This document shows, one piece after another, positions 1,558-34,898 of a stretch of 34,948 nt of DNA. The translations under genes and the position numbers were made by a program. Numbering within the stretch: the first letter of the stretch is position 1; every line of letters starts with the position of its first letter. The notes below the pieces were generated by a model. That model made no database searches and was not told the origin of the DNA. It saw only the letters and a list, made by a program, of their open reading frames with translations. Origin of the DNA: Octopus sinensis (taxonomy: Eukaryota). The stretch lies in contig NW_021831661.1 in NCBI RefSeq assembly GCF_006345805.1, positions 1 to 34,948 of the forward strand. Direction: 5' to 3'.

Positions 1558-4500
1558 GTCTAGTGTTCGATTCGACACTCTTCCAGCAGCTCCTGCAACC
1601 AAGCTGGTGCCAAACGTAATGCTCTGCACTCCTTTGGACTATGTCAGCAAGGTCGAGAGAGGAATCCTGACGATTGGGCAACCAGGATTTTCATATTTCT
1701 AGCCCAGGCCTGCGCAAAACTGGAGAGGACACATCAGTGCTGCTGTAAAAAGTGGCAGAAATAACACGGGAGGTAACAGTCACGAGTGATAAGTCCATTC
1801 AGATTGGCGTAAGATATGGAAGCCACGGGACACCTCTGACGGTGGGGTGGACCTCCATGTCCCATTGGTTAGCTACTGCCTACCTGAAGCTAGGCAGCTC
1901 CCAGTTAATAAGTTGCTGACTCGCCACAGGCCGCCTGTTTCATTGGGTTCTTGGAGCTAAGAGTTTCACTTGAAAAACGGCCTGCAACCTCTGCACCAGG
2001 CAAACAACTAAAAGACAAGAAACCACCAGTCCTGCGGTTAGCAAGCTGGAATGTCAGGACCATGTGCCCTGGAATATCTGATGACCTACTCAGGGTTGAA
2101 GACACAAGAAAGACAGCCATCATTGACCGTGAACTAGAGAGGCTTAACATAGACATTGCTGGGTTGCAGGAGCCAAGACTCCCCTCAAACGGGAAAGTCA
2201 AAGAACAGGATTTCACCTTCTACTGAGCATCTATGCTCCCACTCTCTACGGGTCAGAGGAGACCAAGGACCAGTTCTACAAAGATCTCAACTGTGTCATT
2301 TAAAATATACCAACAAATGAAAACATCTACCTTCTGGGAGATTTTAACGCTCGCGTTGGATCTGACCATGATTCGTGGCCCATTTGTGTTGGATACACTG
2401 ATATTGGCAACATGAATGACAATGGTCAGAGACTACTAGAAATTTGCACATACCAAAACCTGTGCATCACCAACACATTCTTCGCCAACAAGACATCCCA
2501 CAAGGCATCTTGGAGACATTCAAGATCTCACCACTGGCATCAGCTGAATCTCATCATCGCACGAAGATCCTTTCTGAATTCTGTTCAACTGACCCGTAGT
2601 TACCACAGCGCAGATTGTGTCACACAGATCACTCACTAATTAGAAGGAGGGTGAGGATCCTGCCTAAAAAAGTCCATCACTCCAAGAAAATGTGCCGACC
2701 ACGCATTAACACTGCCAGAACCTCGGACCCTACACTGCGAAAATGTTTTGCTGTTTCTATCAAGGTTGCCCTCAGTAGCTGCCCAACCTCCTCTGCTGAA
2801 AGTAGGTGGAATTATATCAGGAAAGCTTTGTATACCACATCAATAGATACTTTCGGCATGAGAGAAAGGCAAAATCCAGATTAGTTCAGTGCTGGGCTCT
2901 CAGCTGGGAACAGTTATCGAAGCAAAGCGTGCAGCTCTGATGCAATACAAGAGTGATTCTTCTACAAAATCACTCGAAGAACTTAGAAAGGCAAGAAATA
3001 TAACCCAACTGACAGCCAGACACTGTGCAAATAGGTATTGGCAGAAAATCTGTCAGAGTATCCAGTCAGCTACTGACAGTGGCGATACCTGGTTTGAAGA
3101 AGGCCCTCGGTCCATCCGCAACTAGTCAGCCCCTCTGAAATCAACTACTGGAGATCTCATCAAGGACCAAAGGAAGCAAATGGATAGATGGGTTGAGTAC
3201 TACCAGGATCTCTACTCACGGGAGACCACGGTAGCTGAGACTGCAATCGAGAGTGTCAAGATCTTGCAAGTCATGTGCGAACTTGACAGTCCGCCATCTA
3301 TAGAAGAGCTATAGACGCCCTAGCAAGGGTATTGACACCTTAGCAAGTAGCAAGTCTCCGGGAAATGACGACATCCTCTCAGAGATCATCAAAGCCGGAA
3401 AAACCACAATCCTGCTTCGGTTACCCTCAGAGCTTCTGTGTCTGTGCTGGGAAGACGGTACAGTCCCTCCGGATATGCGGGATGCTAACATCCTTACGCT
3501 TTACAAAAACAAATGTGACTGTGGTGATTGTAACAATTACCATGGAATATCTCTTCTACGCACTGTTGGAAAGACTTTTGCTCGTGTTATCCTGTCCAGG
3601 CTACAACTCCTTGCTTCTCGAATTTATCCGAAATCGCAGTGTGGCTTTAGAAGAAGCATATCAACTATTGAAATGATATTCTCCATACGCCAACTCCAGA
3701 AGTCCAGAGAGCAGAAAATGCCATTATATAAGGCCTTCATTGATCTGACAATGGACTTTGACTTTGTAAGTAGAAAAGGCCTCTTCATCCTGCTCCTAAA
3801 AATCGGATGTCCACCAAAGCTGCTGAGGATTATCAAATCTTTCCATGATGATATGCAAGGCACCACACAGCACAATGGATCATCAGCCGCCTTCCAAATA
3901 AAAAACGGGGTAAAGCAAGGTTGTGTCCTTTTTCCTACATTATTTGGCACCTTCTCGATGCTGCTCTCACATGCCTTTCAGACATCAGATGATGGAGTGT
4001 TTCTGCAGAGTAGAAGTGACGGGAAGCTGTTCAATCTCTCGCGCCTGCGTGGCAAGACTAAAATCAGAAACGTCCTGATCAGGGAGATGCTATTTGCTGA
4101 TGATGCCGCTCTAGTATCACACACAGAAGAAGCATGTAACGACTTTGGCTTAGCTATCAGCCTTAAGAAGATCAACATCATGGGTCAGGCTACATTGGAC
4201 ATCACAAACATATATATTGGAGATTACAGATTACAGGAGGGGGAGAAGTTTACCTATCTCGGATCTACCGTCACCTACAACCTATCCCTTGACGCTGAGC
4301 TCAATATATGCATTGGCGAGGCAGCTTCTGTGATGGCCCAACTCTCCAAACGGGCATGGGACAACAATAAGCTGACCAAGAACACAAGAATGAAGATTTA
4401 ACAGGCATATGTACTTAGCCCTCTACTATATGAAAGTGAGACTTGGACGACATACACACGCCAAGAGCGTCGCCTAAATATCTTTCAGATGCGCTGCCTC

Positions 4501-5074
4501 CGGAAAATCCGTTGCATCAAATGGCAGAATTATGTTCCCAACAAAGATGTCCTCAGGCAAGCAGGAATACCAAGCATGTTTGCACTCCTCACACAAAGAC
4601 GTATGAGATGTCTTGGAAATGTTAGCCGTATGGAAGATGGCAGAATCCCCAAGGACATACTCTACGGAGAGCTTGCTAGGGGCACTAGGTCTGTGGGAAG
4701 ACCGTTCTTACGATTCAAGGATGATTACCAAAGGGACATGAAAGCCTACAACATCAATATTAGCTACTGGGAAGCAGTTGCCAGCAACCGTGGACTTTGG
4801 CGACGTACCGTAAAAGAGGGAACACAAAGGAGTGACATAGAGAGAAAGGAGAAATGGAAAGACAAGAAAAGACGTCAACAAGAAACTATGACATTACAAC
4901 CACTCAGGAAAAGTCTTAGCTACATCTGCGGTGCCTGCCGGAGGGAGTGTCTGTCCAGGATAGGACTACACAGCCACAGCAGGAGATGTATTAGGATATG
5001 AAATGTAAAAGCCGGACTAGATTATTTTATGCGCAACTCCATTGTCTCCCGACACAAAAATGATGCCAACAACA
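1558..5074 (+). mobile_element. RTE-clade LINE, near full length, inactivated
   Basis: APE endonuclease motifs (LASWNVRTM, IAGLQE, GDFNARVG), RT (GVKQGCVL, MLFADDAAL), C-terminal zinc finger (CGACRRECLSRIGLHSH), short (CAA)n tail, and 10-bp TSD ATTATAATTA at 1548-1557 and 5075-5084. Confidence 0.93.
1951..5001 (+). pseudogene. RTE APE-RT polyprotein, disrupted by stops, frameshifts and a deletion near 2226
   Basis: ORF pieces 1951-2226, 2412-2639, 2615-2884, 2889-3125, 3475-4401 and 4489-5001 are collinear parts of one RTE ORF. Confidence 0.9.
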
Positions 5075-5167
5075 ATTATAATTATCAGTGTAACAAATAA
5101 ATAAGTAAATATTTTAATGTCCTAAAGTTGATGAACCAACTATTGTTCTCCTCCATTTTCTTACTTG

Positions 5168-5212
<45 letters not shown>

Positions 5213-5318
5213 TGTATGTATATATATATGAGGGGGAAAACTATAGGAAAATTTGTTGTTCACAATGCACCACAATTTGAAAAACTTGTAATTGGTTTTA
5301 AATAATCTTATTTACATA

Positions 5319-5423
5319 CATACCAAACTAGTTTCAACAATATTTTTGATTTATTAATGGCAAAAATTTAAAATAATGAACGAGAAAAAACATGTTTCAA
5401 TGTTTACAAGTTTCAGTGATATG
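5319..5423 (-). ncRNA. Degenerate hammerhead-like motif near the 3' end of an unclassified minus-strand element (~5230-6120)
   Basis: Minus strand: CATATCA-CTGAAAC...TGTT-GAAA-CTAG-TT-TGGTATG. 7-bp stem I and palindromic helix III, but damaged core. Confidence 0.4.
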
Positions 5424-6130
5424 AAATATGATTTAAATATTCATAACATTCAATAATATAAAAGATGTGGAACATCTTGTTTGAATGCATAAAATTCAAA
5501 AGATCGATTAGAAATGTGTATCATCAGAGTTTCGGCCATACAGGGTAAAGAAGGAGGAAAACAAGGGAGAAACTGAGATAGTGGAAAAAAGGAAATCTTT
5601 GAGCACAATCCCTGTGAATCATTTTCCGTCGTGTGCAAGGACTTTGCTTGTAACGGCGTTTTTTGGAATTGGATGTATTTACAATTTTTTCCGTGAACCG
5701 ATCTGATATTTGCTTCATTGAATTATAGGTGACGTCTAATTTTTCTGGTGGGCAAGGTTGTGGTTCTGCCTGATGGGCTTCCCTGTGGGGACGGGCATAA
5801 GCCATTCCAGTTGGTTTGATTGTCTTAAAGCGTTCGGTTCTGATCAGATGTAAAATTTCAATGATTTATGTGACATCAGCAACTGGTGTTTATATGGTGG
5901 TATTGTATGGCGATTTGGATTTGCTATTTCGAAACCCGCGTTGAAGACTGGTACTAAATATTTTTGAATTATGTCTGTTGTATCTCGTTTTTTATTGTGG
6001 AAAAATTGTTTCTTTTCCTTTTTCTGTTTAGTGTTTAAACAGAGGTGAATAAGAGAGAATGAATTAAACGATATTCTTTATTCTATAACACTACCATTGT
6101 ATATTGTTCAGATGATGTAATTAATATATA

Positions 6131-6417
6131 GCGCATGACTCAGTGGTTAGAGCGTGGAGCTTACAATCGTGAGGTTGTGGGTTCGAATCCCAACCCAGGC
6201 TGTGTGTTGTGTTCTTGAGCAAGACAGGTGTAGAAATGAATTGCGACGTCACAGGTTCCAAGTTGTATCGGCAGTTGCCTCTCCCTTATATAGAGATGTG
6301 AGGCCGGTATGCATGGGCGACTGCTGATCTTCCATAAACAAACTTGCCCGGACTTGTGCCTGGGAGGGTAACTTTCTAGGTGCAATCCCACGGTCAGTCA
6401 TGACCGACGGGGGTCTC
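6131..6417 (+). mobile_element. tRNA-derived SINE (family B)
   Basis: A-box-like TGACTCAGTGG and B-box GGTTCGAATCC in a tRNA-like head, followed by a non-tRNA body (TGTTCTTGAGCAAGAC...). Confidence 0.8.
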
Positions 6418-6661
6418 AGCTCAATCCTTACCATCTATCGTAGGTGTAAAATATGCTTTTAGGTGAGTATTTCAATAAGTTCTACGTTAGATCATACTAT
6501 CATTTCACAGACACATGTTCCACCTTTGATGAATGGCAGTGATCACACAAGATATTAACCATATCATCTCATCAATGAACTACGGGTGTGATGTATAGAC
6601 ACAATTGCAGGGATATGGAATAAAGAATGTCGTTGAAACCATTCGCTTAGTCCTCATCAGC

Positions 6662-6835
6662 TATGTATGTATGTATGTATGTATGTATGTATGTATGTAT
6701 GTATGTATGTATGTATGTATGTATGTATGAATGTATGTATGTATGTATGTATGTATGTATGTATGTATGTATGTGTGTATGAATGTATGTATGTATGTAT
6801 GTATGTATGTATGTATGTATGTATGTATGTATGTG
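6662..6835. repeat. (ATGT)n microsatellite
   Basis: Directly visible tetranucleotide array. Confidence 0.97.
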
Positions 6836-6850
6836 TGTGCCTCTCTTTCC

Positions 6851-7070
6851 TCTTTTACTTGTTTCAGCAACTCGACTGCTTTGCAGCAGGAGAATCACCT
6901 TGAAGTATGAAATTCGAACCCTGGTACTTACCCTGTCGACCGCTTATGCGAAATCCCTAACTGACGAGGAATTAAACGCACTAACCTAAGTTGTGAAGAA
7001 GTAGTGAGTACAAACATAGAGACTAAGTCACACTCACACACACTCGCACACATATGTATATGATATAATT
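6851..7070 (-). mobile_element. Old 3' fragment of SINE family A
   Basis: CTTTTACTTGTTTCAG... aligns loosely with 721-920. Confidence 0.55.
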
Positions 7071-7084
7071 ACATATATATATGA

Positions 7085-7530
7085 AAGAGTTAGGACTCTA
7101 GTCCATGGAGCGAAAACCGGAGAGGTATGTAGTGATATGTGTGGAAGTTACTAGGGAAGCTGGTATCAAACTTTGGAATTCAGAATTATACCAGACCTCG
7201 AATTGGACGTCACTGCACTGTTCCAAAAGTCCCGGGGTCTCATTTAATATTAGGAGAATGTACTGCAATAGTTTGAGGTTCAAGTGCTCACCGATTTTTC
7301 ACGCCTTGCCAACACATCTGAGGAGTGGGTGTAGATGTTACAACATACAACTTGACCTCTTGCTATCCAAGTGAACCAATATCAGGGCAGGAAACTCAAA
7401 AGACTGCAGCGGTAGTGAACTCCGGCCAATCTCATAAACTCGGCCAGTCATTCGAAAATTATTTACATTGGTGGGGCCCCAGCATCGAAACAGCCTCAGG
7501 GTTAAAACATATAAAAGAATAAAAGAATAT
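7085..7530 (+). mobile_element. CR1/L2-type LINE, short 3' fragment
   Basis: Translates to LGL*SMERKPERYVVIC...NSLRFKCSPIFHALP...LDLLL, resembling the C-terminus of the CR1 ORF at 26873-27412. Ends in (TAAAAGAA)2. Confidence 0.75.
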
Positions 7531-7536
7531 ATATAT

Positions 7537-8257
7537 ATATGAATGAAGGTTTGAAAATGCAATTTTAAAAGATGTTTATTTACTTGACCGGTTTCACTCT
7601 TTTAGAAAAAGATTGTCAGAAGTAACATGTAAAAGCTTTGTTGTGTTTGGTACTGATTGTCTACAATACATACACACATTCCTTGATAAAGCATTGAACA
7701 TTTAGGTTGTATATAAATGAACAATGAGGGAGATATGTTTAGTTTGAACTGACCTGATTCACCATACTATCGTAAAAGCTTTTACGATAATATGGTGAAT
7801 CAGGTCAGTTCAAGCTAAACATAGCTCCCTCATTGTACATTTATATACTACCAAAATGTAACCTTTTTGAACTTATAATTTTCTGTGTGTATATATACAG
7901 ATACAATACCAATTTTCCTCTGAACTTTTTAATAATTCTTTCTGTAAGCTGCTTTTAACATTCTATTTTTATTATCAAAGAATGTATATATGTATTGTAA
8001 TCTTTTGTACCCAATATTTTAATGAACTTGTCAAATTTCTTTTATATTTTCACAAGATTTTCCCTTGTAACTGTGTTTAACATATTCTTATTATTATCAA
8101 AGTATGTATATATGTATTGTAATATTTTGTGACAACCAGTACCTAACACAACAAAGATTTTACATGTTGCTTTTGACAATTCTTTCTAAATAAGTGAAAC
8201 CGGTCAAGTAAATAAAGATTTTTTAACATTGCATTTTCAAACCTTTTTTCATATATA
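7537..8257. repeat. Fold-back palindromic element with a degenerate hammerhead in each arm
   Basis: Zero-spacer centre AAAAG|CTTTT at 7778/7779. Inner arms ~7701-7778 and 7779-7856 differ at about 6 positions. Outer arms ~7537-7690 match ~8090-8257. The right arm contains ~120-bp tandem copies. Hammerhead motifs at 7580-7625 (-) and 8167-8211 (+). Confidence 0.85.
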
Positions 8258-8281
8258 TTTCCACTCGTGCGGTACTTTACA

Positions 8282-8328
8282 ACTCGAAACATTACGTACG
8301 ACAGTGGTTCGTACGTAATGTTTCGAGT
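8282..8328. repeat. Perfect 20-bp inverted repeat with 7-nt loop
   Basis: ACTCGAAACATTACGTACGA-CAGTGGT-TCGTACGTAATGTTTCGAGT. Confidence 0.95.
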
Positions 8329-8790
8329 GTATGGGCGCACGAATAAATCACAGCTTAATCAAGACCATGTTCATAATTTTTTCCGCCATCCTCGGTATTG
8401 TGCATTGGGAGCTTTTTCAGGGAGGACGTTTGGGGAAAATGACCGGATCTGGATTCGCGAAATATTGAATTCTTCACGACAACAATGCACCTATCACCTC
8501 AATCGTAAGTTTCTTGCCAAAAACAACATGCTATCGCATCCGCACATGCCCTATTCGCGTGATTTACCACCTGCTGACTTGCATCCGTTCCTCAAGATGA
8601 CAAATCAGCTCAGAGGTCGAGATCAAGAGCAAACTTAACATCATTGTCGAAATCAAGAGGTCCTCGACTCGCCTATGGAAAACTACGTCCAGGCCGGATT
8701 TCAAAAGTGTCAGAAAAGCTGGGGCAGTTGTATTATTGCTCAGGTAACATAAGTTACTTTTATTAAACATAGCTCGTTCAGAAAATTTAT
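8309..8790 (+). mobile_element. Mariner transposon deletion derivative (copy 1)
   Basis: Fragments translate to IKTMFIIFF, HDNNAP, FLAKNNM and PHMPYSRDLPPAD (mariner YSPDLAP motif). Confidence 0.8.
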
Positions 8791-8796
8791 ATATAC

Positions 8797-8928
8797 GACG
8801 GGTTTCCTTCAGTTACCGTGTACCCAATTAATTAACATACACGGGTTTGTTCGGTTGGAGAGCAGAGTACACGCAGAAGGACTGAATACAGAAGCAAAAT
8901 TCTTATCACACAGCAATGCCAACGCCTA
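8797..8928 (-). mobile_element. Internally deleted 5' part of SINE family A
   Basis: GACGGGTTTCCTTCAGTTACCG...CACGCAGAAGGACTGAA...ACGCCTA is homologous to 1020-1173. Confidence 0.65.
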
Positions 8929-9201
8929 AGCATATGCACACACAACCACACACACACACACACACACATACACAATACACACACACACGTATGACGGAAA
9001 TGGAAAATGGATTTTACGAGATTCGTTAATCATTACTGCCGTTTCAACCCGTCTTCAATCGGCCCCTCACGGATGAGATAATGGTCGAGTGGCCGCGGTG
9101 CATCTTTCTTTGCAGATGTTTCTCATCAGTTGATATTTCAAAAAGTACTCTGCTCAATAAGCTCGGTTTCACTTGGTTCGATTTTAAAGTATTTCGTTAC
9201 T

Positions 9202-10832: not shown

Positions 10833-11240
10833 AAGATGCGATAAAAAATTAGAAATTGAAAAGATTAACGAAAAAGGTGAAGGAAAATAAATCATAGAAC
10901 GGATAAATAGAGAGAGAAGAAGAAGAAGAAGCGAAAATGATTCATGAAGAGAGGAGAAAGCAGTTGATTAAAAGCAGAAGAACCAGAATATGATGAACAA
11001 GATGAATGTAGAGAAAAAGTTGTGAAGAAGACGATAAATGCAGGAAAAGAAGATATATTAAGACAAGAAAAATGACGTGGAATATCAGAATGGGGAAACA
11101 AGTGGGAATAAAAGAATATTAATACAAATACTGTACTCACACATCAAACAAACGCAAACATATATTTATATACATATATACACATTTATGTATTTGTCTT
11201 GCAAGAACTTTTATGTGAAATCGTGTGTTGAAACATATAT

Positions 11241-11717
11241 TTGTTGTATTTAGGAATGGTCATTTTGTCAGTTTAGCCTATAAAACACACGCACTATATA
11301 TTTGGTATTACTTTGCTTCAGCGTTATTTAATTTTACATTAATCTTAATCTTATTTCGGCCAGAGTTCTTTCGTCACACACCTGTGACCTCATCAGTGGT
11401 CCTTTGCTTTCTTCTTTCATGTTTGTGTGTCTCTCCTTACTAACGGTCAGCCATTTTGTATTTTGTATTTCTATTGTATGTGTTTTCATTTGCGCATTGA
11501 TATACCTCTATATTTGTCTATGTTTAGTTAGAGTGTGTGTGTGTCGGGTGGAGGGAATGTCTGTAATATTTATATCTACTGTTTATATACGTTCGAAAGA
11601 ACTCTAGCCGAAATAAGATTAAGATTAACGTCAAAAATAAATAACACTGAAGCAAAGTAACACCAAATATATAGTGCGTGTGTTTTTATTGACTAAACTG
11701 GCTATATGACCATTCCT

Positions 11718-11727
<10 letters not shown>
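11241..11727. repeat. Inverted-repeat element (~133-bp arms, ~220-bp spacer) containing a hammerhead
   Basis: 11241-11373 is approximately the reverse complement of 11595-11727. Confidence 0.85.
11358..11402 (-). ncRNA. Minimal hammerhead ribozyme
   Basis: Minus strand: GGACCA-CTGATGA-G-GTCACA(GGTG)TGTGAC-GAAA-GAAC-TC-TGGCC. Core intact, 6-bp stem II after one extra G, bulged stem I. Confidence 0.65.
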
Positions 11728-11794
<67 letters not shown>

Positions 11795-12475: not shown

Positions 12476-12899
12476 GAGAAAAAGAGGGAGAACGAAAAAG
12501 AACGAAAGAGAAATATCCAAGACCTGAGGTAGAAGGAACGTGACTGTAATGCTTCACGTGATTAGTTGAATGGAATGAGAGACCAAGAGAAAGAAAAAGG
12601 AATGAGAAAACGAAAGTAAGTTGAAGAGTGGAGCAGAAAAAGAGGGAGAGGGAGAAAAAGGAGAGGTAAAAAACCGAGGGAGAAAAAGAGGGAGAACGAA
12701 AAAGAACGAAAGAGAAATATCCAAGACCTGAGGTAGAAGGAACGTGACTGTAATGCTTCACGTGATTAGTTGAATGGAATGAGAGACCAAGAGAAAGAAA
12801 AAGGAATGAGAAAACGAAAGTAAGTTGAAGAGTGGAGCAGAAAAAGAGGGAGAGGGAGAAAAGGGAGAGGTAAAAAACCGAGGGAGAAAAAGAGGGAGA
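12476..12899. repeat. Tandem duplication of a 204-bp purine-rich unit (2.1 copies)
   Basis: Units start at 12476, 12680 and 12884 and are nearly identical. Confidence 0.95.
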
Positions 12900-18688: not shown

Positions 18689-20090
18689 CTTAGAGTTACT
18701 TGACATAAACTTAATTTTATTGGAATTGACTTCAGATACAATAACCTTGTTATTGATATTTCTAGAGGGTTGGATGTTATTAGCTAAATTAATGTTAGTA
18801 TTAGTAAGTGTATACAAAGCGAATGAAGGCGGATAACCCTTATTTAATCCCCTATTATCGATCTAAAAGTAAATATAACACCTTCAACGTAATTACACTA
18901 TGAATACAAGTAAATATATTTGGTTAATAATTCCTTACGGAGACAAATTAAATCTAATCTCCCACTGCTGTTTCGTCAAGCTATTGCTAGGAATTTTCCA
19001 AACAATTCTAGATATTACTCTATAATCAATTCACATAAGGTTAGGATAGGTTTTTCAAACACAAATAATCACTTGCAAATTATATCTTCTCATAATAACA
19101 AACTGTTAAATATTAATACACTTACTAATACTAACATTAATTTAGCTAATAACATCCAACCCTCTAGAAATATCAATAACAAGGTTATTGTATCTAAAGT
19201 CAATTCCAATAAAATTAAGTTTATGTCAAGTAACTCTAAGATTAAAAATTCTATATACCAGTGTATAATCAGTACTCGTAATAAAGTACGATTTTACATT
19301 GGAAGCACATCGTTAGAGTTATCTAAAAGAATTTCTATCCATTACTCAACGTTTAGGGATAGAAATAAACGGAATAGTACCGGTCTCAGCAAACTGATTT
19401 GGGATTTAAAAGACCACAATGAACAATTTCATTTAGAATGATTGATCCTCTCAATTTCGATACCATATAACAAAGGCAAGAAATTCTGTCTTCTCTGCAA
19501 TTCTGAGCTATTTTTCATTATTTTTTCTAAAAATACTCTAGTAAACACGGTTATAGAACGAGCATGCAGATGTAAGCATTGGCAAAAACATACATTTAGT
19601 GCATATAAGTAGTCTCTATCATTATATATAATTTAAATTTTAATTTCCTTTATCTTTAACATTCGCTATTAATATCCCTACTCTTTCTGTTAGCTACTTA
19701 TGACGTTATATCATATAGCGTTTTTTTAAACAATGTTAATAGCGTTCTGTCTATCGCTATAACAAATCCATCATGTTTTGCTAAAATGTCTTATTGACGA
19801 GTTTCGTTTTTTTCACTTTCCTGAGGAGAAGATTGCATTGTTTATACCATTTATTCTTTTGAATAGTATCAGTGGAATTTTCGAAACATGTGTCGAAAGT
19901 AAAAATATTTGATTACACATGCGTTAACTCCATTTTTTATTCATATTATTCAAAATATTCAACGTAAACATGAAGTTTCTACCTTTATAAACAAGGAGTT
20001 ACAACACCTTTACTTGTGAGATTTTTGCTGCCCTGGTAACTATTTATTTATTTTCTCCGTGTTAATTGTTAACAAGGTAAAATTACACTC

Positions 20091-20095
<5 letters not shown>
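18689..20095 (+). mobile_element. Penelope-like element, 5'-truncated, GIY-YIG part plus pLTR (possibly Hydra clade)
   Basis: ORF 18920-19441 plus in-frame continuation past TGA to 19612: SIYQC...FYIGST, STGLSKLIW, FCLLCNSE, CRCKH. Hammerhead in the 3' region. Inverted 125-bp 5' segment. Ends at (TA)n. Confidence 0.85.
19815..19900 (+). ncRNA. Minimal type-I hammerhead ribozyme, intact core
   Basis: ACTTTC-CTGAGGA-GAAGATTGCATTG...CAGTGGAATTTTC-GAAA-CATGTG-TC^GAAAGT. Perfect 6-bp stem I, ~12-bp stem II, GUC cleavage triplet (cut after 19894). Confidence 0.85.
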
Positions 20096-20881: not shown

Positions 20882-20959
20882 CTCTTTTTGTTCCACGTCT
20901 TCACGTTGTTGTTGTTTTTGTGCTTTCTTGTTTGGATTAACTATATATATATATATATG

Positions 20960-22730
20960 TAGGTGGGCTGGCCTGTGAAACCCATCGACAAAGCAATTTT
21001 CTAGACATCTTACTGAAACCCTTGCTGAAATACATCAAATTTTTCATTAGGGAAAAAACAATTAATGAAGAGGCAATATTGGTTTCCCTCGATGTTATCA
21101 ATCTTTACACCAACATCTCCCATGACTTTGGAAAAAAGCAATTAAATTCTGGTTGGAAAAGTACTCCCGGAATGCATAAGCTAGATGTTTATAATGAAAT
21201 CCTGAACATTTATACTTCAGAACAATTATTTCCTATTTGATGACACATACTATCATCAGAAATGCGGAAGTGCGATGGGGACGAAAGCAGCTCCGGTTCT
21301 TGCGAACCTAATAATGGGTTATTTTGAATTCACCTTATATGAAGAATCACTTCAGAAATATTGTTAACCATTTTACCTCTACATAAGAGAAAATTGGAAG
21401 AGATACCAAGATGACTGCTTTATCATCTGGAGGGAGAACATCGACAAACTCTTGGATTTCAAATCAACACTAAATGACATAAATAGTAACATTCAATTCA
21501 CAATGGAATATAACAAAGAATATCTCCCATTTTTAGACGTCATGATAAGAAAAGTTAACAATGAAATCATAACTGACATTTATTATAAACCAACTGATTC
21601 AAAACTATATCTTCTGAATTAGACACGAAAACACTAAGAACAAGAAAACATAACACCACAACTCAACTCAAAACATTACTATTTATATCAACACACAACC
21701 ACAGAAACAGTAAAGCATTCAACACTATTTGCAAATTCTTCCTTTGCTTAATAGAGATCCAAAAATGAACGACATCCTGAAAACAGAAACTCATCAAATG
21801 CAAACAGCAAGACAAATCGCTAAAGAGACTACTAACAAATGCAAAGCTTTACACAACAACCACGAAACCACCGGTTGAAAAATGTGGACGCCCAACTGTG
21901 GAAACTGCCCCAACCTGCTTCAAGGCTCGGATTTCCTTTTCAAACAAGGAGAGAGGTTCAAAATTAAAACTAGTTTCACTTGTGCCTCTGAGAACCTAAT
22001 TTATTTAATAACATGCTCGGTTTGCGGACACCACTATAGTGGACAAACGAGTATGACCTTGAGAAAGAGAACCACTCAACATAAAAATCAAATCCGTTTC
22101 CCGGAATACTGAAAATTCCTCTCAGTGAACATATAGAAAAATGTGCTGGTAACATCAAACCAAATTTCACTGTCTTACCTTTTTACCAGTGAAAAGATGC
22201 AATCTCTCAACTAGAGCGTTTAGATAAAGAAACTTTTTTCATTGAAAAATACAAAACTCATCTTAATATCCACGCATAACCAACGTGTATCTTTTTACAC
22301 ATTTCAATTTATGATAACATTACAGTACATAAATCCCCTACTAAACAAGGTTTTTGAAACTTGTGTCTGTCAGTACGCATATATAAATCCCCACCTATTA
22401 CCTAAAGCTGAACTGTTATCTCCCTTACCTACAACAATAACAATAATAACGGCAACCAATTACCGCCCTTTATTTACCTACTTGTGAAGTCATTCTCTCG
22501 TGAATTTCTTCACACACAATATGGACAAAATTTCTTCTTAAAAAAATATATATTCAAATAAGTAAAACATAATATCATGAATAGCGATATCGAAACCGGT
22601 CGAAATATTAAAAATTATATTAAAACTATGTAAGTGTTCGTATTTTCCTTTTTTAATTTCTCAAATAAATTACAACTCACAACGTGGGGATAAGCGGTAT
22701 TCCTCTTTTCTGTTTCTACAACTACTAATA
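20960..22730 (+). mobile_element. Penelope-like element (Neptune-like), decayed RT plus GIY-YIG
   Basis: RT: LVSLDVINLYTNI, CGSAMGTKAAPVLANLIMG, WKRYQDDCFIIW, LPFLDV, YYKPTD. CGRPxCxxC-type Cys linker (frameshifted). EN: NLIYLITCSVCGHHYSGQT. Partial hammerhead GAAACCGGTC at 22592-22601. Confidence 0.9.
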
Positions 22731-22943: not shown

Positions 22944-23114
22944 ACCTATTTATATAGGTTATGAGAGGTAATGGTGTCAAGGAGACCCAAATGTGTCAGG
23001 TAATGATGAGTAAGTGCTATGGACAGACTATAGTTAAGCTCCAGGTTCGGTGATTATGCAAATGAGGAGTCAAACGTAGGTCATATATTAACATGCATAT
23101 ATATAAAATTAACA

Positions 23115-23381
23115 GAATGAAATTAAGATCCAAGACTGTGGAAGATTTCAGGACATTTCTAGAGAGAATACTTTACAGCTGTTTCCGGGATATTTATGTA
23201 TCTCTTCATCGGAGACGGTGCGAGAAAATGATTAAGCAATAGATATTCTAGAATAACTATTGGTTAACCATTCTCTCACACCGTCATCGATGAAAGAATA
23301 TATAAATATCCATGGAACCGCTAAAAGACCTCTCTATAAATGCTCTGAAATCTTTCACAGCATTGGACTTTTATTTCATTC
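23115..23381. repeat. Old fold-back palindrome with a degenerate hammerhead in each arm
   Basis: Zero-spacer centre TATTCT|AGAATA at 23249/23250 with diverged arms. Minus strand of the left arm reads CCGATGA...GAAA-CAGCTG-TA; the right arm reads TCGATGA...GAAC-CGC-TA. Confidence 0.75.
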
Positions 23382-23527
23382 AGATATATATATATATATA
23401 TATATACATACATACCAATACATATATATATATATATATATAATATATATGTACGTATAAGTGCAAATGTATGTGGCTATCTATGATTGTTTACGAATTT
23501 CATTTTCAAATTTCTCAATCTCGAATT

Positions 23528-24509
23528 ATAGGTTGTCCATAAAAAGTGGACCTGGATTCCGTAAAGCAATTTTTCTTTATGAAATAGACATTTTCTAGTT
23601 TATCGGCCAGAGAAACAATAGAATTACCCGATCAACGACAAGTATTACTGCTAGTATATATATATATATATAATTTCACGGACAAACTCTATAGCGCGCC
23701 GACGGTTGGATGCACACGATTGAATGCACGGTGACAGCGAGCAGTGACCTTCATGGAGTAGTATGCTGAGTAACATCGATGTGTATACTTCACACGATGT
23801 GGAATTTGTATTTTCGTGATGACGTGTATGAATAGGACGTGTATGGAAGAATGAACCAACATGAAATTTTACGTAAAAATTGGGAGGTCTGCTATAGAGA
23901 GATGGAGCATGCTTCGGCAAGCTTCTAGCGATGAGACAATGGGTCGTACATAATGTTTCAAGTTCACAGGTGTACGAGAGAATGACAGCTTAATCAAGAG
24001 CATTTTCAATATTTTTTCTACATCGTTGGTATTGTGCATTGAGAATTCGACCCCCAAGTCCAAAAGAGGGATCAACAGCGATATTTTAGGGCTTTTCAAG
24101 GATGACATTCGAGAAAACTGACTGGATTTGTGGTACGCGAATTATTGGATTTTTCACAACGACAATGTACTCTGTCACCACACTCGTGGGTTTCGTGCCA
24201 AAAGCAACATGCTATCGCTTCTGTACATGTCCTTTTTGCCAGATTCAGCACCTGGTGACTTCCATCTCTTCCCCAAGATGAAAATACGGTTCAAAGATCG
24301 AGATCAATAGGAATTTTAACACCGTTGTTGAGATCAAGACGTCTTCAAGAGGCCGGATACCAAAAGTGTCAAGAAAGCTGGATCGGGTGTATTCGAAAAG
24401 CTTTGCGGTGTATTCCTGCACAAGGTGACTTTACCGAAGGAGATGAAGTTAATATAAGTTAGTGTTATTAAATATAACTCATCCAGGAACATTACGATGC
24501 CACTTTGTA
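23528..24509 (+). mobile_element. Mariner transposon deletion derivative (copy 2)
   Basis: N-terminal KFYVKIG and MGRT*CFK, then WIFHNDNVLCH and PDSAPGDFHLFPKMK. Weak terminal inverted similarity (CCTGGA/TCCAGG). Confidence 0.8.
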
Positions 24510-24516
24510 TGTATAC

Positions 24517-24637
24517 GATGGGTTTCTTTTAGTTACCGTGAACAAATATACACGAGTTTGTTGTGCTGTAAGCCAGAGTACACGCAGTGGGACTGAATAC
24601 AGTAGAAAATATTATATCACATTCATGCCAACGCCTA
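24517..24637 (-). mobile_element. Internally deleted 5' part of SINE family A
   Basis: Homologous to 8797-8928 and appears to share its deletions. Confidence 0.65.
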
Positions 24638-24660
24638 ATCGTATGTACATATATATATAT

Positions 24661-25323: not shown

Positions 25324-25934
25324 CTGACTCGTGGCCGTGGTACGTAAAATACTCCAATGTGACCGTACGACAGGCACCCATGCCAACCCCCTTTGCTTGT
25401 GAAGACATGTTGGGGCAAGCGAAATCGAAATAGAATTGAACCAGCCAGGATCCCTGGTCTGGTGGTACGTAAAAAGCACTATCCGACTCGTGGCCGTGGC
25501 ACGTAAAATACTCCAATGCGACCGTACGACAGGCACCCATGCCAACCCCCTTTGCTTGTGAAGACATGTTGGGGCAAGCGAAATCGAAATCGAATTGAAC
25601 CAGCCAGGATCCCTGGTCTGGTGGTACGTAAAAGGCACTATCCGACTCGTGGCCGATGCCAGCACCGCTTCGACTGGCTTCCGTGACGGTGGCACATAAA
25701 ATACACCAATCTGACCGTGGCCGTTGCCAGCCTCGCCTGGCACCTGTGCAGGTGGCACGTAAAAAGCACCCACTACACTCACGGAGTGGTTGGCGTTAGG
25801 AAGGGCATCCAGCTGTAGAAACATTGCCAGATTAGACTGGAGCCTGGTGCAGCCTTCTGGCTTCCCAGAACCCCGGTCGAACCGTCCAACCCATGCTAGC
25901 ATGGAGAACGGACGTTAAACGATGATGATGATGA
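25324..25934 (+). mobile_element. Non-autonomous retroposon (family C) with internal 159-bp tandem duplication and (GAT)n tail
   Basis: Units start at 25326, 25485 and 25644. Conserved block GGAGTGGTTGGCGTTAGGAAGGGCATCCAGCTGTAGAAAC. 3' end CATGCTAGCATGG...(GAT)n. A second copy lies at 29584-30368. Confidence 0.8.
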
Positions 25935-26761: not shown

Positions 26762-29096
26762 AAAACTTAGATAAAACTTAGATATGTTTCGACCAGAGAT
26801 TGGTCCAGCCATGTCTAACTTAATAGCACCACCTGATAGGATTATTCGAATCCTGTTTAAGTCAAGTTTTGTTCAAGTAGTGAGTTCTTGTTGGGTGAGT
26901 TGTATCCAGTTTTGTTCAAGTAGTGAGTTCTTGTTGGGTGAGTTGTATCCAATTATGGGTGGCTTATCTGGTATTCTTTGAAGGAATCTATCCAGACTCT
27001 GTTTGAAGTTGATGGGATCCTTTTCCTCTTTGATCTCCCTCGGGACAATGTTAAATAGGGCAGGGCCTGTTGAGGAAAAGAAATTATGTTGCAGTGTACA
27101 TGTATGTTGTGATCTTGAATTTGGCAGGGGACGTATAGCCCGTGGTCCAAGTCTCGGATGGACCTTGAAGCTAATGTTTAGGTCGTTTGGGCAAAGTTGG
27201 CGGTATATTTTCCACATCGTACAAATGATGTACCGCTCACGGCGACGCTGGAGGGAGTAAAGTTTCAAGGCTTTAAGGCGATCCCAATAGTCCGAGCAGC
27301 ATGCCTTCAATTTGTTTAGTGAGAGCCCTCTGGGGTGACTCAATTCTGGAGATGTTGTGTCTTGTGCGAGGAGACCACAGTGGGCAGCAGTATTCAAGGT
27401 GTGGCCGTACAAAGGATGAAAAAAGTGGTATGATGAACACTTGTTCTCTGGACCGGAAAGTCCTTAAGATCCAGGAACTCATCCTACGAGCTGTATCGAC
27501 CTTCTTGTTGATGTGTGCACTCCAACTGAGATCGTCATCAACAATTACACACCAGGTCTCTGATATTGTTAGAGGCTGTGAGCGGTTCCCCTGAAGGAAG
27601 AGAGTATGGTTGTTTTAGTGAGGAGTTTCTTCCAAAATGCATCAGCTCAAATTTTCCCTCATTCAGTTGCATTTTGTTTCTGTCTGCCCATTGACTCACA
27701 GCATATAGGTCAGACTGGAGTTGAGTTCGGTCTGCTTCTTCATTGACGATTTGCTGGAGCTTAGTGTCATCAGCGAATATTTTCACTTTGCAGTGATGTA
27801 CGACACTGGAAAGGTCGTTTACATAATTATGAAGAGTAGCGGACCCAAAACAGTTCCCTGGGGAACACCGCTGGTGACTTTTGCTCGGTTTGAGTGGACT
27901 CCATCAACTACAACATGTTGTGTTCTATTCGCTAGGAAATACTGAATCCAGTGTAGAACTTTTCCACGGATTCCACATTTGCCAATTTTGAGAGTAGGAT
28001 GTTATGGTCTACCCTGTCGAACGCTTTACTGAAGTCAAGGTATATGACGTCAGAGTTCGAACCTGTTCCCAAGGCTTTGAGTACATCTTCAATGTGGTGT
28101 AAGAGCTGTGTTAGACAGTCCCTGCCACAGCGAAGCCATGCTGATTTGAATTTAGGAGTTTGTGGGTCTCCAGGAAGCCAGCTATCCTTGATCTTAACAC
28201 TCTTCAAACACTTTAATGATGGGGAGGTGAGTGAGATTGGGCGATAGTTGACTGCGAGGGATCTGTTTCCCTGTTTGAAAACCGGGATGACCGACTGGAA
28301 TAGAACATTTTCGGTATATAACCTGCGTCTAACGAGTTTCCTCCAGAGGTTGGTCAGAGGGACTGCAAGTTGATCTACATTCCTTCAGAGACTGGCGGGA
28401 AATCTATCAGGGCCTACAGCAGAGTAATGTTTGACCTCATTTATTGCTGCTACGATGTCGGTGGCAGTGAAGGTTATGTCTGCGATTTTGTGTTGGGAGT
28501 CAGCTTCGTTCGTTTCCCTCACATCACAATATCAGTGGGAACACTGAAGACAGAGCAATATTGTTTCTGCAGTATTTCTGCCATTTCTTTAGCATCGTGT
28601 TGGGGAATGCCGTTTCATCAATCAATGGCCCAATAGGTGAGACAAGTGGTTCTATGCTTATTTGCATAAGAATAGAACACTTTTGGGTTCTGTTTGATGT
28701 TTTTGATTACCCATTGTTCCTCCACAGCTCTTTGATTTTCAATGGAGGTTTTCATGTTAGTCTGCAGATGAAGTTTTTCCAGCTCTAGTCTTTTCATTGT
28801 TGTTGAATGTGGATGTTGCGTGTGGGAATATTTTAATTGGTTGATTTTTTTGTTGAGTCTTTTGATGCGCCTGATGAGTGTTTTTTTCTTTTTAGGGAGC
28901 CGGTTTCTGTTTTGTTAGTAGATTTCTTGGGAGCGTGTTTAGAGCATGTGTCGGTGACAAGGTTTCAAAGTGCTGCCACGCTGTCTCAATATGAGGGGAA
29001 TTGAGAGTAAAAGACCAGTCGATGGAAGACAGATCCTTTCTGATTGTTCCCCAGTCCGCTTTGTGGAAATTTATGTTGTCAAATGGGTGCCATGGA

Positions 29097-29186: not shown

Positions 29187-29236
<50 letters not shown>

Positions 29237-29293
29237 AATTAAGAGTTTAATATAAACGTCTTCATTTATGTTGTAAATTTATTTATGCTATTT

Positions 29294-29403
29294 AGACCTG
29301 AAGAGTAGCTATGTATCATTGGATCGAAGAAATATTAATTTTTCAGATAATCAATTTTGATAATGTCGATATTACTATATCGTCACGAAATGCGCCTCGT
29401 CGA
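29294..29403 (+). ncRNA. Minimal hammerhead ribozyme, core intact, stems eroded
   Basis: AGAC-CTGAAGA-GT...AC-GAAA-TGCGCC-TC-GTC, inside an AT-rich unit bounded by (TA)n (~29235-29530). Confidence 0.6.
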
Positions 29404-29525
29404 TTTTATGTGCATTATTTATTATAGTATGATTTAGCATATAATTAATTATATATTCCTATTTATATTTTATTATAGATAATATCTTTCATTCTTGATT
29501 GAATTACTTTATGGAGGTCTGTCTC

Positions 29526-29579
<54 letters not shown>

Positions 29580-29583
29580 TATA

Positions 29584-30368
29584 TCATCATCATCATCATC
29601 ATCATCACATTTAGCGTCCGTTTTCCATGCTAGCATGGGTTGGACGGTTCAACTGGGGTCTGGGGAGCCCGAAGGCTGCACAGGCCAGTCAGATCTGGCA
29701 GTGTTTCTACAGCTGGATCCCTTCCTAACGCCAACCACTCCGAGAGTGTAGTGGGTGATTTTATGTGCCACCGACACAGGTGCCAGACGAGGCTGCGAAC
29801 GGCCACGCTCGGATGGTGTTTTTATGTGCCACCGACACAGGTGCCAGACGAGGCTGGCAGACGGCCACGCTCGGATGGTGTTTTTATGTGCCACCGACAC
29901 AGGTGCCAGACGAGGCTGGCGAACGGCCACGCTGGATGGTGTTTTTATGTGCCACCGACACAGGTGCCAGACGAGGCTGGCAGACGGCCACGCTCGGATG
30001 GTGTTTTTATGTGCCACCGACACAGGTGCCAGACGAGGCTGGCGGACGGCCACGATCGGATGGTGTTTGTTACGTCCCCAAAGCACGGAGGCCAGTCTAT
30101 GCGGTACTGGCTACGGCCCGTTCGGATGATTTTCTTGTGTGCCACCGGCACTGGTACCACAAAGATGCAAATTCCATTTATGTTCATCTATTTTGATTTG
30201 TTTTGATTTGATTTGATTTTCACTTGCCTCAACAGGTCTTCACAAGTGTCACAAGAAGGAAGGTATGCACAGGTGGACTGACTACGTCCCAGGTAGGGGC
30301 CACGGGTTATGGCCTGACTAGTCTTGCCGGTCTTCGGATGGTGTTTTTATGTGCCACCGACACAGATG
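29584..30368 (-). mobile_element. Family C retroposon with internal ~61-bp minisatellite
   Basis: Reverse-complement match to 25680-25934 including the (GAT)n tail. Five ~60-62-bp units at 29759-30066. Confidence 0.82.
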
Positions 30369-30454: not shown

Positions 30455-30601
30455 TTGAGTAGTTGAATGAATTATCTTATTAAGGATAATTCGAAAGATA
30501 ACCGATACCAGGGTAGCAAATTCACATCAGAAAGAACACGGTTGAAGCTACGTCCGTAGGGTATAGACTACGTGCTTTCGTGCTGAAGTTGTATGTTTAT
30601 T

Positions 30602-30724
30602 TTAAAAATATATAAGTATATGGAAGAATGGAGTTGAACGACTGGTTAACAAGTATCCTTTATTCTCGACGTATGTTGAACCTGTCGTTCAACTCCATTC
30701 TTTCATATACTTATATATTTTTAA
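30602..30724. repeat. Hairpin with ~50-bp arms and ~22-nt spacer
   Basis: Perfect core GAATGGAGTTGAACGAC/GTCGTTCAACTCCATTC, extending outward to TTAAAAATATATAAGTATATG/CATATACTTATATATTTTTAA. Confidence 0.9.
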
Positions 30725-30961
30725 TATATGTATATATATATATACATGCACACGTATGTCCATGCATACCAGTATATATCATATATATATACTCACACAC
30801 ATACATATATATATAGAGAGAATATTATCTTCCAATTATTCAAGTCATTAATCAGCGACCATCCTGGCAACCCTCCTAGAAGTTATTTTATTCGAATATA
30901 TTCTCCACAGTATTTAAATTTTGAAAGTCTGTTACTTATTATATCGTTTCCTTTGAGGAAC

Positions 30962-31874: not shown

Positions 31875-31939
<65 letters not shown>

Positions 31940-31940
31940 A
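31693..31940. repeat. (GATA)n microsatellite
   Basis: Directly visible. Confidence 0.97.
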
Positions 31941-32080
31941 TAAACACAGTGTACATTTAAACACATAAGAAGTATCCGTCATAGGATTCCCTGAACGCTA
32001 GAAGGAACAGCTAAAATCCAAACCGCTATTAGGGATAATAATCGAAGGGAATGAAAATTATAAAACATTTACCTCTATCT

Positions 32081-32150
32081 CCTAGACAACGGATTCAAAC
32101 ATTCTTTTAGCAAATAAAATTATATGCTAGGCGAAGTCTTCATCAGCAGG
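32081..32150 (-). ncRNA. Degenerate minimal hammerhead
   Basis: Minus strand: CCTG-CTGATGA-AGACTTC...GAATGTTT-GAAT-CCGTTG-TC-TAGG. Stems I and II pair; GAAA has become GAAT. Confidence 0.55.
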
Positions 32151-32336
32151 TACGCCTAGATTAAAACATATATGCATGAGGCAATCCAGCTTTTGCCTCT
32201 TATGTGATACCTCTTATGTGTTTAAATATGTACACTGCATTTATATGATATATATAGTCTATTGACATTTTTTTTACACGTTAGGCCACTGGTAGTAAAC
32301 ATTCTAAGCTTTTTTATTACCCTGTTATTGTTAATT

Positions 32337-32469
<133 letters not shown>

Positions 32470-34898
32470 CATGTTTCTTTATTAGCCACACAGAGCTGCA
32501 CACAGACGTGAAAGATTACAAGGTAAAGAGAGCTTTCTTTTTTAGGAATTAAGGTAGGGTAGGTTTTCGATAAAAAGTAATCGTAAAAGAGAATAAAGAC
32601 AAAGAAAAAAAGGAAAAGAAACAAAAGAAAAAATCGATCAATATGGATTGTGTATCACAGTGTCATGATGTAAGGTGTAAAGGGGGAAGCAGATAAGTTT
32701 TATTCGTGGGAATAAAAGCCTACGGAAAAGACCACGGTAACCTCGGTCAATATTGTTACATGTTACCACATTTGTTTTCAAGTAACCCTCACTTTTGATT
32801 TCCAGTTTCATAGGATTATGCTCAAGCTGGCTTCGTTTTTCATACGAGCCATCCTTGTTACATTCACCCATCTTTTTAAAACATTCGCTAGACAAAACTT
32901 GCCTCTCTACTCTCTCTCTTTCCTTTTCAAATGATACTTGAAGATGTTGATGACCAGAGAGGAAAGTGTTTGTCTCCAATACTTTCAGACGCGTCCACCA
33001 GTTACATTATTTTGCCATATGATGGAAGTAGCTCTTCCTTCCTGTTTGAAGGGAGGAGGCGTGACAATATTGACGATAGACTCGGCTGATAAATCGACTC
33101 GTCCCACACGTGACAGCAGTTGTTCGACATAAGCCCACAGGTCGGAAATGGTTGGATAGTACACGAGAGTGAGCAGAACAGTTTCGTCGCTCTGACCGCA
33201 TCACGGGCAGGTCGGCCCCGTGTTCCTCGAACCGTGTCTGTAGAGCTTATCCCGAAGAAGTAGCGCTTCTCGGTAGCACTGCCAGGCCAGGGATCTCTGG
33301 AGGTTGTCAATTGGCCCTGGCCCGAAAGTCGTCCTGAACATGCGGGTCACGTATTCCTCGTCGACGTCCAGGTTCGCCCCGAGCTCGTCGTCGTACCTAC
33401 CCTCCACTAATCCCCTATAGAATGCTTGGGTTGTGGTGAAGTCACTCATGGTCGACCCGGGACGGCATAGTTGCTTGACAGCAACGCGACACTGGCGGTG
33501 CCATTCGCTCTTTCTCGGCCTCTTTTTGATCCACGACTGCAGTTCGGTCATGGAGGCGAGTTGCCGAAAGCGTGCCTCAGAAACAGCGACCACACCTGTT
33601 CACCGTCGTCTACATAGACCCTGAGATGTCGCAGTCTAAGCGAGTGTCTGTGCATCATCAAACACGGCATGCCCAGTCCTCCTTTTAACGGGTGTTGACT
33701 GCAAATGGATCGCCTGACCATCGGGACGCATCCTTTCCACAAGACGCGAAAGAGAATACGCTCTAGATTGGTGATGGTAGGGTCGGGACAAGGCACGACG
33801 GTCAGACGGTAGTAGATGACGTACGCGATGTACGAGTTGGCCACCTCCACCCAAACTTTTAAGGTTTTTCTTCTCGGCCCATTGCCGGGCGAGAGTGACC
33901 ACCCTACTCATTATCTCGTTCTAGCTCTTCTCCATTTGGAGGTCCGGAACAACCAGACCCCGAAAAACTCGACCGGACAGTCGGTCCAGCGTCCCACGAC
34001 GGAGGTGCTGGTGGACGGCATGGGCTTGCTCCTCCAGGTACCGAGTCGCAAACCCACTTGTTTTTCCCGGTTGATTTTCGCTCCTGTCAGTATCGATGGT
34101 CTACCCTATCCAAAGCTTTCGATTGATCCAAATTGATCAGCGCCCCACCCATGCCAGGTTTCTTAACTACCCTGTCTATGATGTAGCACATCAGGTGTAG
34201 GTTGTCATTGATGCTCCGGCCCGGCACGGCGCATGTTTGCGCCTTGTCGACCAGTTTCTCGATAACAAGCGCCAAGCACGTTGCTAACACGTTGAACAAA
34301 ATTTTCAAGTGATGGGCCTAAAGTTATCTATTACATTCCCCTTGTTTAGATCTTTCTTCAGCAGAGTTACGGCTCCTCGGATAACAAAACCAGGAATGCT
34401 CCCGTTTTGCTACCAGTTGCAGTACACCGCTGCCAAGACGTCTCCAAACAAGTCTGGCATACAACTGTAAAGCTCGTAGGGTAGACCAACCAAACCCGGC
34501 GACTTGTCACTCGAGCATTCTGCGATCGCGTCCCGCACTTCCGCCGCCTTGATGTCACCTTCGCAGCGCCCTGCCTCTCTTGTCGAGAGTCGTGGTATGC
34601 TGTGTAGGTAGGCACTGAAGTCCACCCTACGCTCTTGCCTGCCACTCGTCCCGAACAGTCGGGCAAAATGCCGTTGGAAAGCGTCACACATTTTACTTGA
34701 CTCGAGCAATTCGCGCCCCTGTTCATCTACGAGAGATTGAATTGTGGGTTTATTGCCCTGTTGCGCCTCTGCCACCCGGGCTTCCCTCGCGGCTCTAACA
34801 CCTTCGTTCCTTAGAGCACGCACCCTAGCTGTGACAACACACCCTTCGTGTTTCGCGTTGAAGTGTTGGTCGGGAGCCAACACGCCGCCAAAACGTCG
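32470..34898 (-). mobile_element. L1/Tx1-clade LINE, 5'-truncated, with RT-core deletion
   Basis: KSPGLVGLPYELY, GRSINDNL, LDQSKALDRVDHRY, deletion near 34087 jumping to TGAKIN, then KGGLGMP and the CP*CG zinc-knuckle region. AATAAA just before the 3' end. GC-rich relative to the host. Confidence 0.88.

Follow-up and report, generated by a model that had tools for sequence, protein, structure and literature searches.

The element at positions 7533 to 8284 of the window (here the whole 34,948-nt stretch of Octopus sinensis DNA under study, contig NW_021831661.1 of assembly GCF_006345805.1) is very probably a head-to-head pair of 5'-truncated pLTRs, or ends, of a Penelope-like element (PLE), and we consider it likely that it represents a non-coding, 5'-truncated PLE insertion whose second arm was produced when the new strand folded back on a short self-complementary site and was copied. 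The PLE-type origin, which the initial annotation had already proposed, is well supported by a one-sided tail, (TA)n ends, a type I hammerhead with a palindromic stem III and the head-to-head layout. Inverted pairs of tailed pLTRs and hammerheads on opposite strands are already in print, and the structure as such is ordinary.

The palindrome is centred at 7778/7779 and has no spacer, exactly as first described. Its core is a perfect 22-bp palindrome (7768..7789, 11 bp on each side) that constitutes the head-to-head junction; around it the inner arms (7698-7778 and 7779-7859) are identical in 75 of 81 columns, and the outer arms (7533-7661 and 8131-8258) in 115 of 129. Over the 237 aligned positions the arms show 22 differences (~9%), which, together with a short-read contig across the centre, rule out an assembly artefact. 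The palindrome is asymmetric: the left arm (7533..7778, minus strand, 246 bp) is an inverted short-form pLTR without a tail, and the right arm (7779..8258, plus strand, 480 bp) is a direct, long-form pLTR, beyond which the element extends rightwards up to 8284. Two stretches of the right arm are missing from the left arm, which retains between them a 28-bp piece of the tandem unit (7662-7689) flanked by two short-form junctions with a short filler (7662..7697, minus strand). With polarity taken from the hammerhead strand, the head-to-head order of an inverted 5'-truncated copy is present. No ORF lies within the element, as expected for a truncated copy.

The right arm also carries two diverged units of ~123 bp (7887..8131, plus strand). 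They correspond to one duplication with a period of 123, in which 7943-8008 and 8066-8130 are 86% alike (score 102, against 31.6 +/- 5.5 in shuffled sequence, with none of 300 shuffles reaching the observed score). A third unit was not significant (9-16 of 300 shuffles), and the 123-bp array is absent from the TRF listing. The claim of ~120-bp tandem units restricted to the right arm thus holds for a single 123-bp duplication, but not for a third unit, and the left arm does keep its 28-bp piece. The 123-bp units contain no hammerhead, each strand of the element having one motif, and their number varies within the family, as joints that skip 123 and others that go back 246 indicate.

The two ends of the element differ. 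On the left, the end of an unrelated high-copy repeat (7505..7526; loose ends before 7505 in 4/4 runs, 60-152 contigs), probably SINE-like, is followed by a (TA)7 run (7527..7540) that forms the left junction and is the likely target site, the ends of the family leading into (TA)n. The left arm ends there without a tail. On the right, 26 of the ~35 nt of a PLE tail are retained (8259..8284, plus strand; record 15 of run X11 covers 8104-8284), and contigs that leave the element at 8284 continue with nine further shared letters and then with (TA)n in 4/4 runs (53, 40, 22 and 16 contigs). The tail is therefore present at one end only, and an AT run is the sole sequence common to both ends, the right boundary being cut and the left end lying within (TA)n. 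The TSDs of PLEs vary and within microsatellites often defy reading; none was read for this element. The right flank (8300..8940, plus strand) is a decayed repeat 68-78% like 23935-24649 and presumably mariner-like, by a motif alone; Pfam gave no match in its ORF. A fold-back of 20 bp with a 7-nt loop (8282..8328) stands exactly at the right junction; it has the sequence of the neighbouring repeat, is missing from that repeat's second copy near 23935, and may be a repair scar or an insertion by-product. Two further arrangements were seen among the contigs: one, a multi-copy contig present in both X1 and X11, has position 7449 of the left-flank repeat followed, after 8 other letters, by the tail-less end at 7541; the other, a contig of run X3, carries two 3' ends of the family tail to tail within one TA run (8258 and 7527).

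The initial annotation had placed hammerhead relics at 7580..7625 (minus strand) and 8167..8211 (plus strand), and this is where both motifs stand. Each has a 6-bp stem I, the core (C/T)TGACAA, GAAA and a palindromic stem III, ACCGGT, with GUC sites at 7586 (minus) and 8205 (plus). The left motif has a 6-bp stem II and a core in which C3 is opposite A8; the right motif has an intact U3-A8 core and a weak stem II. Scanning the window with a descriptor returned three matches with a stem I of at least 5 bp, two of which are the element's motifs, and the same descriptor found a mean of 0.2 matches in the shuffled window (20 shuffles). Rfam hammerhead models had no match in the window or in 8150-8230; since Rfam also misses a canonical-core motif near 11,390, this blank is weak evidence. 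The Rfam match to mir-944 at 7736-7821 was rejected, being far under the gathering score and reflecting the hairpin. An exact 23-nt search of viral contigs returned 0 matches, and 32 metagenome loci with the bare core pattern were set aside as chance (stem I of 0-3 bp; neither blastn against the element nor tblastn against the PLE pieces of the window gave a match).

The contigs allow the state of the core in the family to be read directly. Position 7619 is G>A in ~100% of contig depth in 4/4 runs, the family retains U3 at this position in 65-91 contigs per run, the consensus of loose ends at 7602 gives the same hammerhead core, and core position 8 has no variant among the 40 of 102 letter rows listed. 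The other letter at 7619 in ~100% of the depth means that the family core is U3 with A8, and that the C3-A8 break is private to the left copy; paired positions 3 and 8 and an intact core are thus found in the right copy and in the family, and are absent from the left copy. Calling the motifs relics was consequently half right, in that the left copy has its own broken core whereas U3-A8 is the family state and not decay; an origin of the core by CpG decay of CUGACGA was likewise dropped, as the family has U3 with A8. In both copies stem II opens with U-U instead of G10.1-C11.1. U3-A8 and a U10.1-U11.1 opening are described as natural, tolerated hammerhead variants (PMC3088659), and the U3-A8 core has been reported as a PLE hammerhead variant (PMC4209133). 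The hammerhead of the family, judged by its sequence, may be functional.

To place the element within its family, we used contigs from 4 of 20 runs containing family sequence (none of the 20 listed as RNA), aligned to 7300-8300 at 80% likeness (2,478-8,863 contigs per run, flanks included). The evidence is that of the rows listed (40 of 102 for letters, 15 of 75 for joints, 32 of 21,155 for pieces), and contrary cases may lie outside them. The PLE family is high-copy in the octopus genome: summed contig depth on the arms, which is not a copy number, is thousands-fold above that of single-locus joints. From the centre to the hammerhead end, summed depth rises steeply (from 13,000 to 212,000 in X1 and from 2,200 to 316,000 in X3), which is weak evidence because contig depth cannot rank parts of the element. 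The centre at 7778/7779 recurs: record 18 of X3 spans it by 55 and 81 nt on either side with 13 other letters, and record 4 of X1 also crosses it, by 20 nt. A second head-to-head junction exists elsewhere, from 7627 to 8072 (in X1, one among the 15 of 75 joints listed), and shows that such junctions are variable in the family. Opposite-strand joints at 7593/8222 and 7634/8158, on the other hand, are read as switches between the two arms and not as fold-backs.

The junction of the short arm is not private to this copy either. It is present in record 3 of X1 (7649-7777, depth 227, 8 other letters) and in rows at 7688-7694 of X3 (depth 117) and X11 (depth 5), and a second version occurs in X1 and X3 (depth 65 and 61). 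One of these versions, not both, could be the orthologous locus. The short-form joints listed are 7859-7969 and 7695/7969, and no X4 contig crosses the short-arm junction among the matches listed. Both arm forms, short and long, hence occur in other copies of the family, and the difference between the arms at 7599/8192 is a major family polymorphism. Among the papers covered, few of which are subscription titles, searches on Penelope twin priming, cephalopod editing repeats and octopus Penelope hammerheads brought up none that deals with the family or with two-RNA priming; the family may have a name in Repbase or Dfam, and it or its hammerhead may appear in the supplements of PMC4209133, PMC8557442 or PMC13282606.

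How could such a pair arise? PLE insertions are described as 5'-truncated, with an adjacent inverted 5'-truncated copy, a 30-40 bp tail and microsatellite targets (PMC8557442); the inverted copy is also described in PMC3846280, where palindromes at PLE inverted junctions are read as self-priming with template jumps, a published hypothesis. Given a PLE pLTR pair, we lean towards a fold-back on a single template. The PLE endonuclease would have nicked the (TA)n run, the long-form pLTR would have been reverse-transcribed from the tail inwards, and the new strand would have primed itself at the central palindrome; copying back outwards with two template jumps would then have given the short arm, ending without a tail. 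The founder palindrome would later have been copied a few times by segmental duplication or re-transposition, a step postulated from the shared short-arm junction and the shared centre. Later changes would have broken the left hammerhead core and cost the element its right boundary, which disappeared in the neighbouring repeat. Of the snap-back self-priming during PLE-type reverse transcription suggested at the outset, the PLE origin is upheld; the self-priming is not a new idea (PMC3846280) and would have to accommodate arms that are two forms, each found in other copies, which takes a round of later copying on top of a single snap-back. Only the shared short-arm junction is left unexplained by a lone snap-back; founder copying, two-RNA priming and conversion of an arm would each explain it, and founder copying is the explanation we prefer. 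If the arms began identical, they have accumulated ~0.05 substitutions per site each, and the palindrome would, as a rough estimate, date from a little after the peak reported for O. vulgaris at 18 My (distance 0.065; PMC13282606).

A different route, which we regard as a tentative possibility, is that a PLE protein dimer primed both strands of the (TA)n run from two RNAs, a tail-less short one and a tailed long one, with the cDNAs annealing at the centre and being filled in. This would account directly for arms of two forms that each occur in other copies, for their differing at the polymorphic 7599/8192 and at a shared 1-nt gap, and equally for a zero-spacer junction. It would also fit the anole PLE protein, a predicted dimer that in vitro cleaves both strands and extends them, starting at two sites bounding the tail (PMC11167929). 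However, a single diagnostic transition among 14 outer-arm differences could be chance, inner and outer arms show no difference in divergence (Fisher p 0.62), and both short-form contigs that cross the centre continue as its mirror, like a copied founder. The route to tandem and inverted PLE insertions is stated to be unresolved in PMC8557442, and arms of distinguishable forms offer a computational test of self-priming against two-RNA priming; should the latter be true, octopus genomes, dense in such pairs, would hold a record of how inverted PLE insertions form.

It is unlikely that the family instead exists mainly as the whole palindrome, moving as a fixed, non-autonomous unit. The same centre in X3 record 18 and X1 record 4 would agree with this, as would depths of 227, 117 and 61-65 at the short junction against ~30-45 for single-locus joints; nevertheless, little of the family depth extends to the centre or to the short junction, another head-to-head junction exists, and one of the contigs sharing the centre could be the orthologous locus. 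A recurring centre, moreover, needs no mobile unit, since a fixed palindrome at the 5' end of PLE pLTRs is known (PMC3846280). We hold it very unlikely that the element began as a symmetric fold-back of two short arms, the right one having been overwritten from a long-form copy through gene conversion or break repair: the long form is far more abundant and the 20-bp fold-back at the right junction is of a repair type, but one arm would have to gain 250 bp, and no copy with two short arms was seen among the contig pieces listed. Finally, a MITE or foldback DNA transposon with long TIRs and TA insertion, carrying an incidental or captured hammerhead, is highly improbable despite the long inverted repeats, the TA at both ends, the lack of an ORF and the higher depth towards the ends, being largely refuted by the tail, which is found at a single end and is followed by (TA)n instead of symmetric fixed termini, and running counter to the compensated hammerhead core kept by the family and to junctions that vary. 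The initial annotation had named DNA-transposon ends with an unconserved hammerhead core as the signature that would speak against its reading; we looked for it and found neither part.

The window as a whole is AT-rich animal DNA rich in microsatellites and decayed repeats. Within it we found 8 non-microsatellite inverted pairs of at least 40 bp within 2 kb, comprising 2 that belong to the element, 1 that is the 20-bp fold-back at the right junction and 5 elsewhere. With these five outside the element, inverted PLE relics are common in the window, which has at least three further PLE-like ones. At 23079-23416 lies a zero-spacer palindrome of another family, whose arms, 78% alike, meet at 23249/23250; its hammerhead-like motifs, found on both strands, face outwards, and (TA)n stands at its right end. 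At 18689-20094 lies a PLE ORF relic with a GIY-YIG C-terminus that terminates at (TA)n and has a 99% inverted copy of 125 bp at its 5' side (18689-19240). Its GIY-YIG match in Pfam has an E-value of 5e-4, below the cut-off; it is 30% identical over 93% to an RT-endonuclease protein, its Atlas neighbours carry GIY-YIG at 0.92, and RT motifs were read by eye in its homologue P0002. The ORF at 18914-19438 has a 77% match to an Octopus sinensis protein over a third of its length. The third relic, at 11190-11734, is an inverted pair (11242-11726) 90% alike; near 11,390 its minus strand has the canonical hammerhead core CUGAUGA, and the left arm alone is extended by ~40 nt.

Further features of the window were noted. 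Near 19820-19898 the PLE ORF relic has a hammerhead-like motif whose stem II is long; its ORF has an asparagine-rich stretch, as reported for rotifer PLEs, and a short piece of PLE-type RT is found at 20941 (20941-21240). Short inverted pairs beside microsatellites at 30598-30728 and 31938-32246, the two less clear of the five, are likely PLE ends. Hammerhead-like motifs also occur at 29235-29530, flanked on either side by (TA)n and accompanied by a short inverted end, and at 22577-22601, with a paired A3-U8 core and a weak stem I. Near-perfect tandem duplications at 12476-12899, 25326-25655 and 29754-30068 (periods 204, 159 and 62/123) are recent or assembly-related. Decayed LINE-type ORFs with endonuclease and RT pieces are among 1912-5001, 26873-28384 and 33002-34726.

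As for the RNA, the predicted fold of 7530-8284 reaches -313.6 kcal/mol, a value as low as which was found in none of 20 shuffles (z -32). A read-through RNA of either strand is predicted to form one long hairpin in which the hammerhead is paired base for base with its antisense, and the motif is likewise absent from the predicted folds of RNAs that start at the centre. The earlier picture of a hairpin ending in a ribozyme thus keeps its long hairpin, as a prediction, but misleads as to the motif, which is paired with its own antisense. For read-through RNA the prediction is that the duplex locks up both motifs and keeps them from being active, and this copy, with one sense hammerhead per strand, no partner for a dimer and both motifs buried in the modelled fold, is likely inert. 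Minimal PLE hammerheads are described as cleaving weakly and needing a tandem partner (PMC4209133), and hammerhead cleavage as dispensable for PLE insertion in vitro (PMC11167929).

By analogy, a role as a source of dsRNA for editing or siRNA is plausible: fly siRNAs match inverted Penelope regions (PMC3681739), and heavy editing of Penelope is reported from a lizard (PMC5625713). The element itself, with arms 9% diverged, stays below the near-perfect dsRNA threshold given in PMC5625713 (95% over 40 bp), which we applied in an ungapped version to 50-mers of the window. The 242 non-microsatellite 50-mers that pass it all lie in the three other inverted relics, two of which bear clear PLE marks, and TA microsatellites add 216 for a total of 458. 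Octopus is credited with an exceptionally high genomic dsRNA potential in the available part of PMC5625713, where no repeat is named as its cause. Should the two-RNA reading be true, PLE fold-backs might be a main source of this unusually high dsRNA load, a generalization for which one 35-kb window is insufficient.

Among known systems, the closest are the EN+ PLE insertion units (as described in PMC8557442 and PMC3846280), which share the head-to-head pair, the junction palindrome, the tail at one end, the (TA)n target and the 5' truncation; the octopus element differs in having no ORF and in that its arms are two structural forms. No RT or endonuclease ORF is tied to the family, and the choice of clade among Neptune, Nematis and Poseidon depends on an ORF; Naiad is unlikely, as Naiads are without canonical hammerheads. 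PLE pLTRs carry type I hammerheads with a palindromic stem III and opposite-strand pairs 100-700 bp apart, and the U3-A8 hammerhead of Schistosoma mansoni Cercyon shares the type, the palindromic stem III and opposite-strand motifs within 700 bp (PMC4209133). Compared with the minimal PLE hammerheads of the same source, however, the octopus stem II opens with U-U and not G10.1-C11.1, and the motif has a small stem III instead of the zero-loop form. Non-LTR retrozymes, as presented in bioRxiv 10.64898/2026.07.22.740005, are likewise non-coding, pLTR-related and equipped with a type I hammerhead, but consist of at least two head-to-tail tandem units with a complete hammerhead in each, whereas the 123-bp octopus units have none and its motifs are inverted, which places the element outside that definition. 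The palindromic Harbinger repeat of Xenopus tropicalis, an ADAR target (PMC5625713), similarly folds on itself and would yield dsRNA without a neighbour; it is, however, a DNA transposon whose consensus is itself palindromic and whose editing has been measured, whereas the octopus element is a retroelement by-product whose arms are 9% apart.
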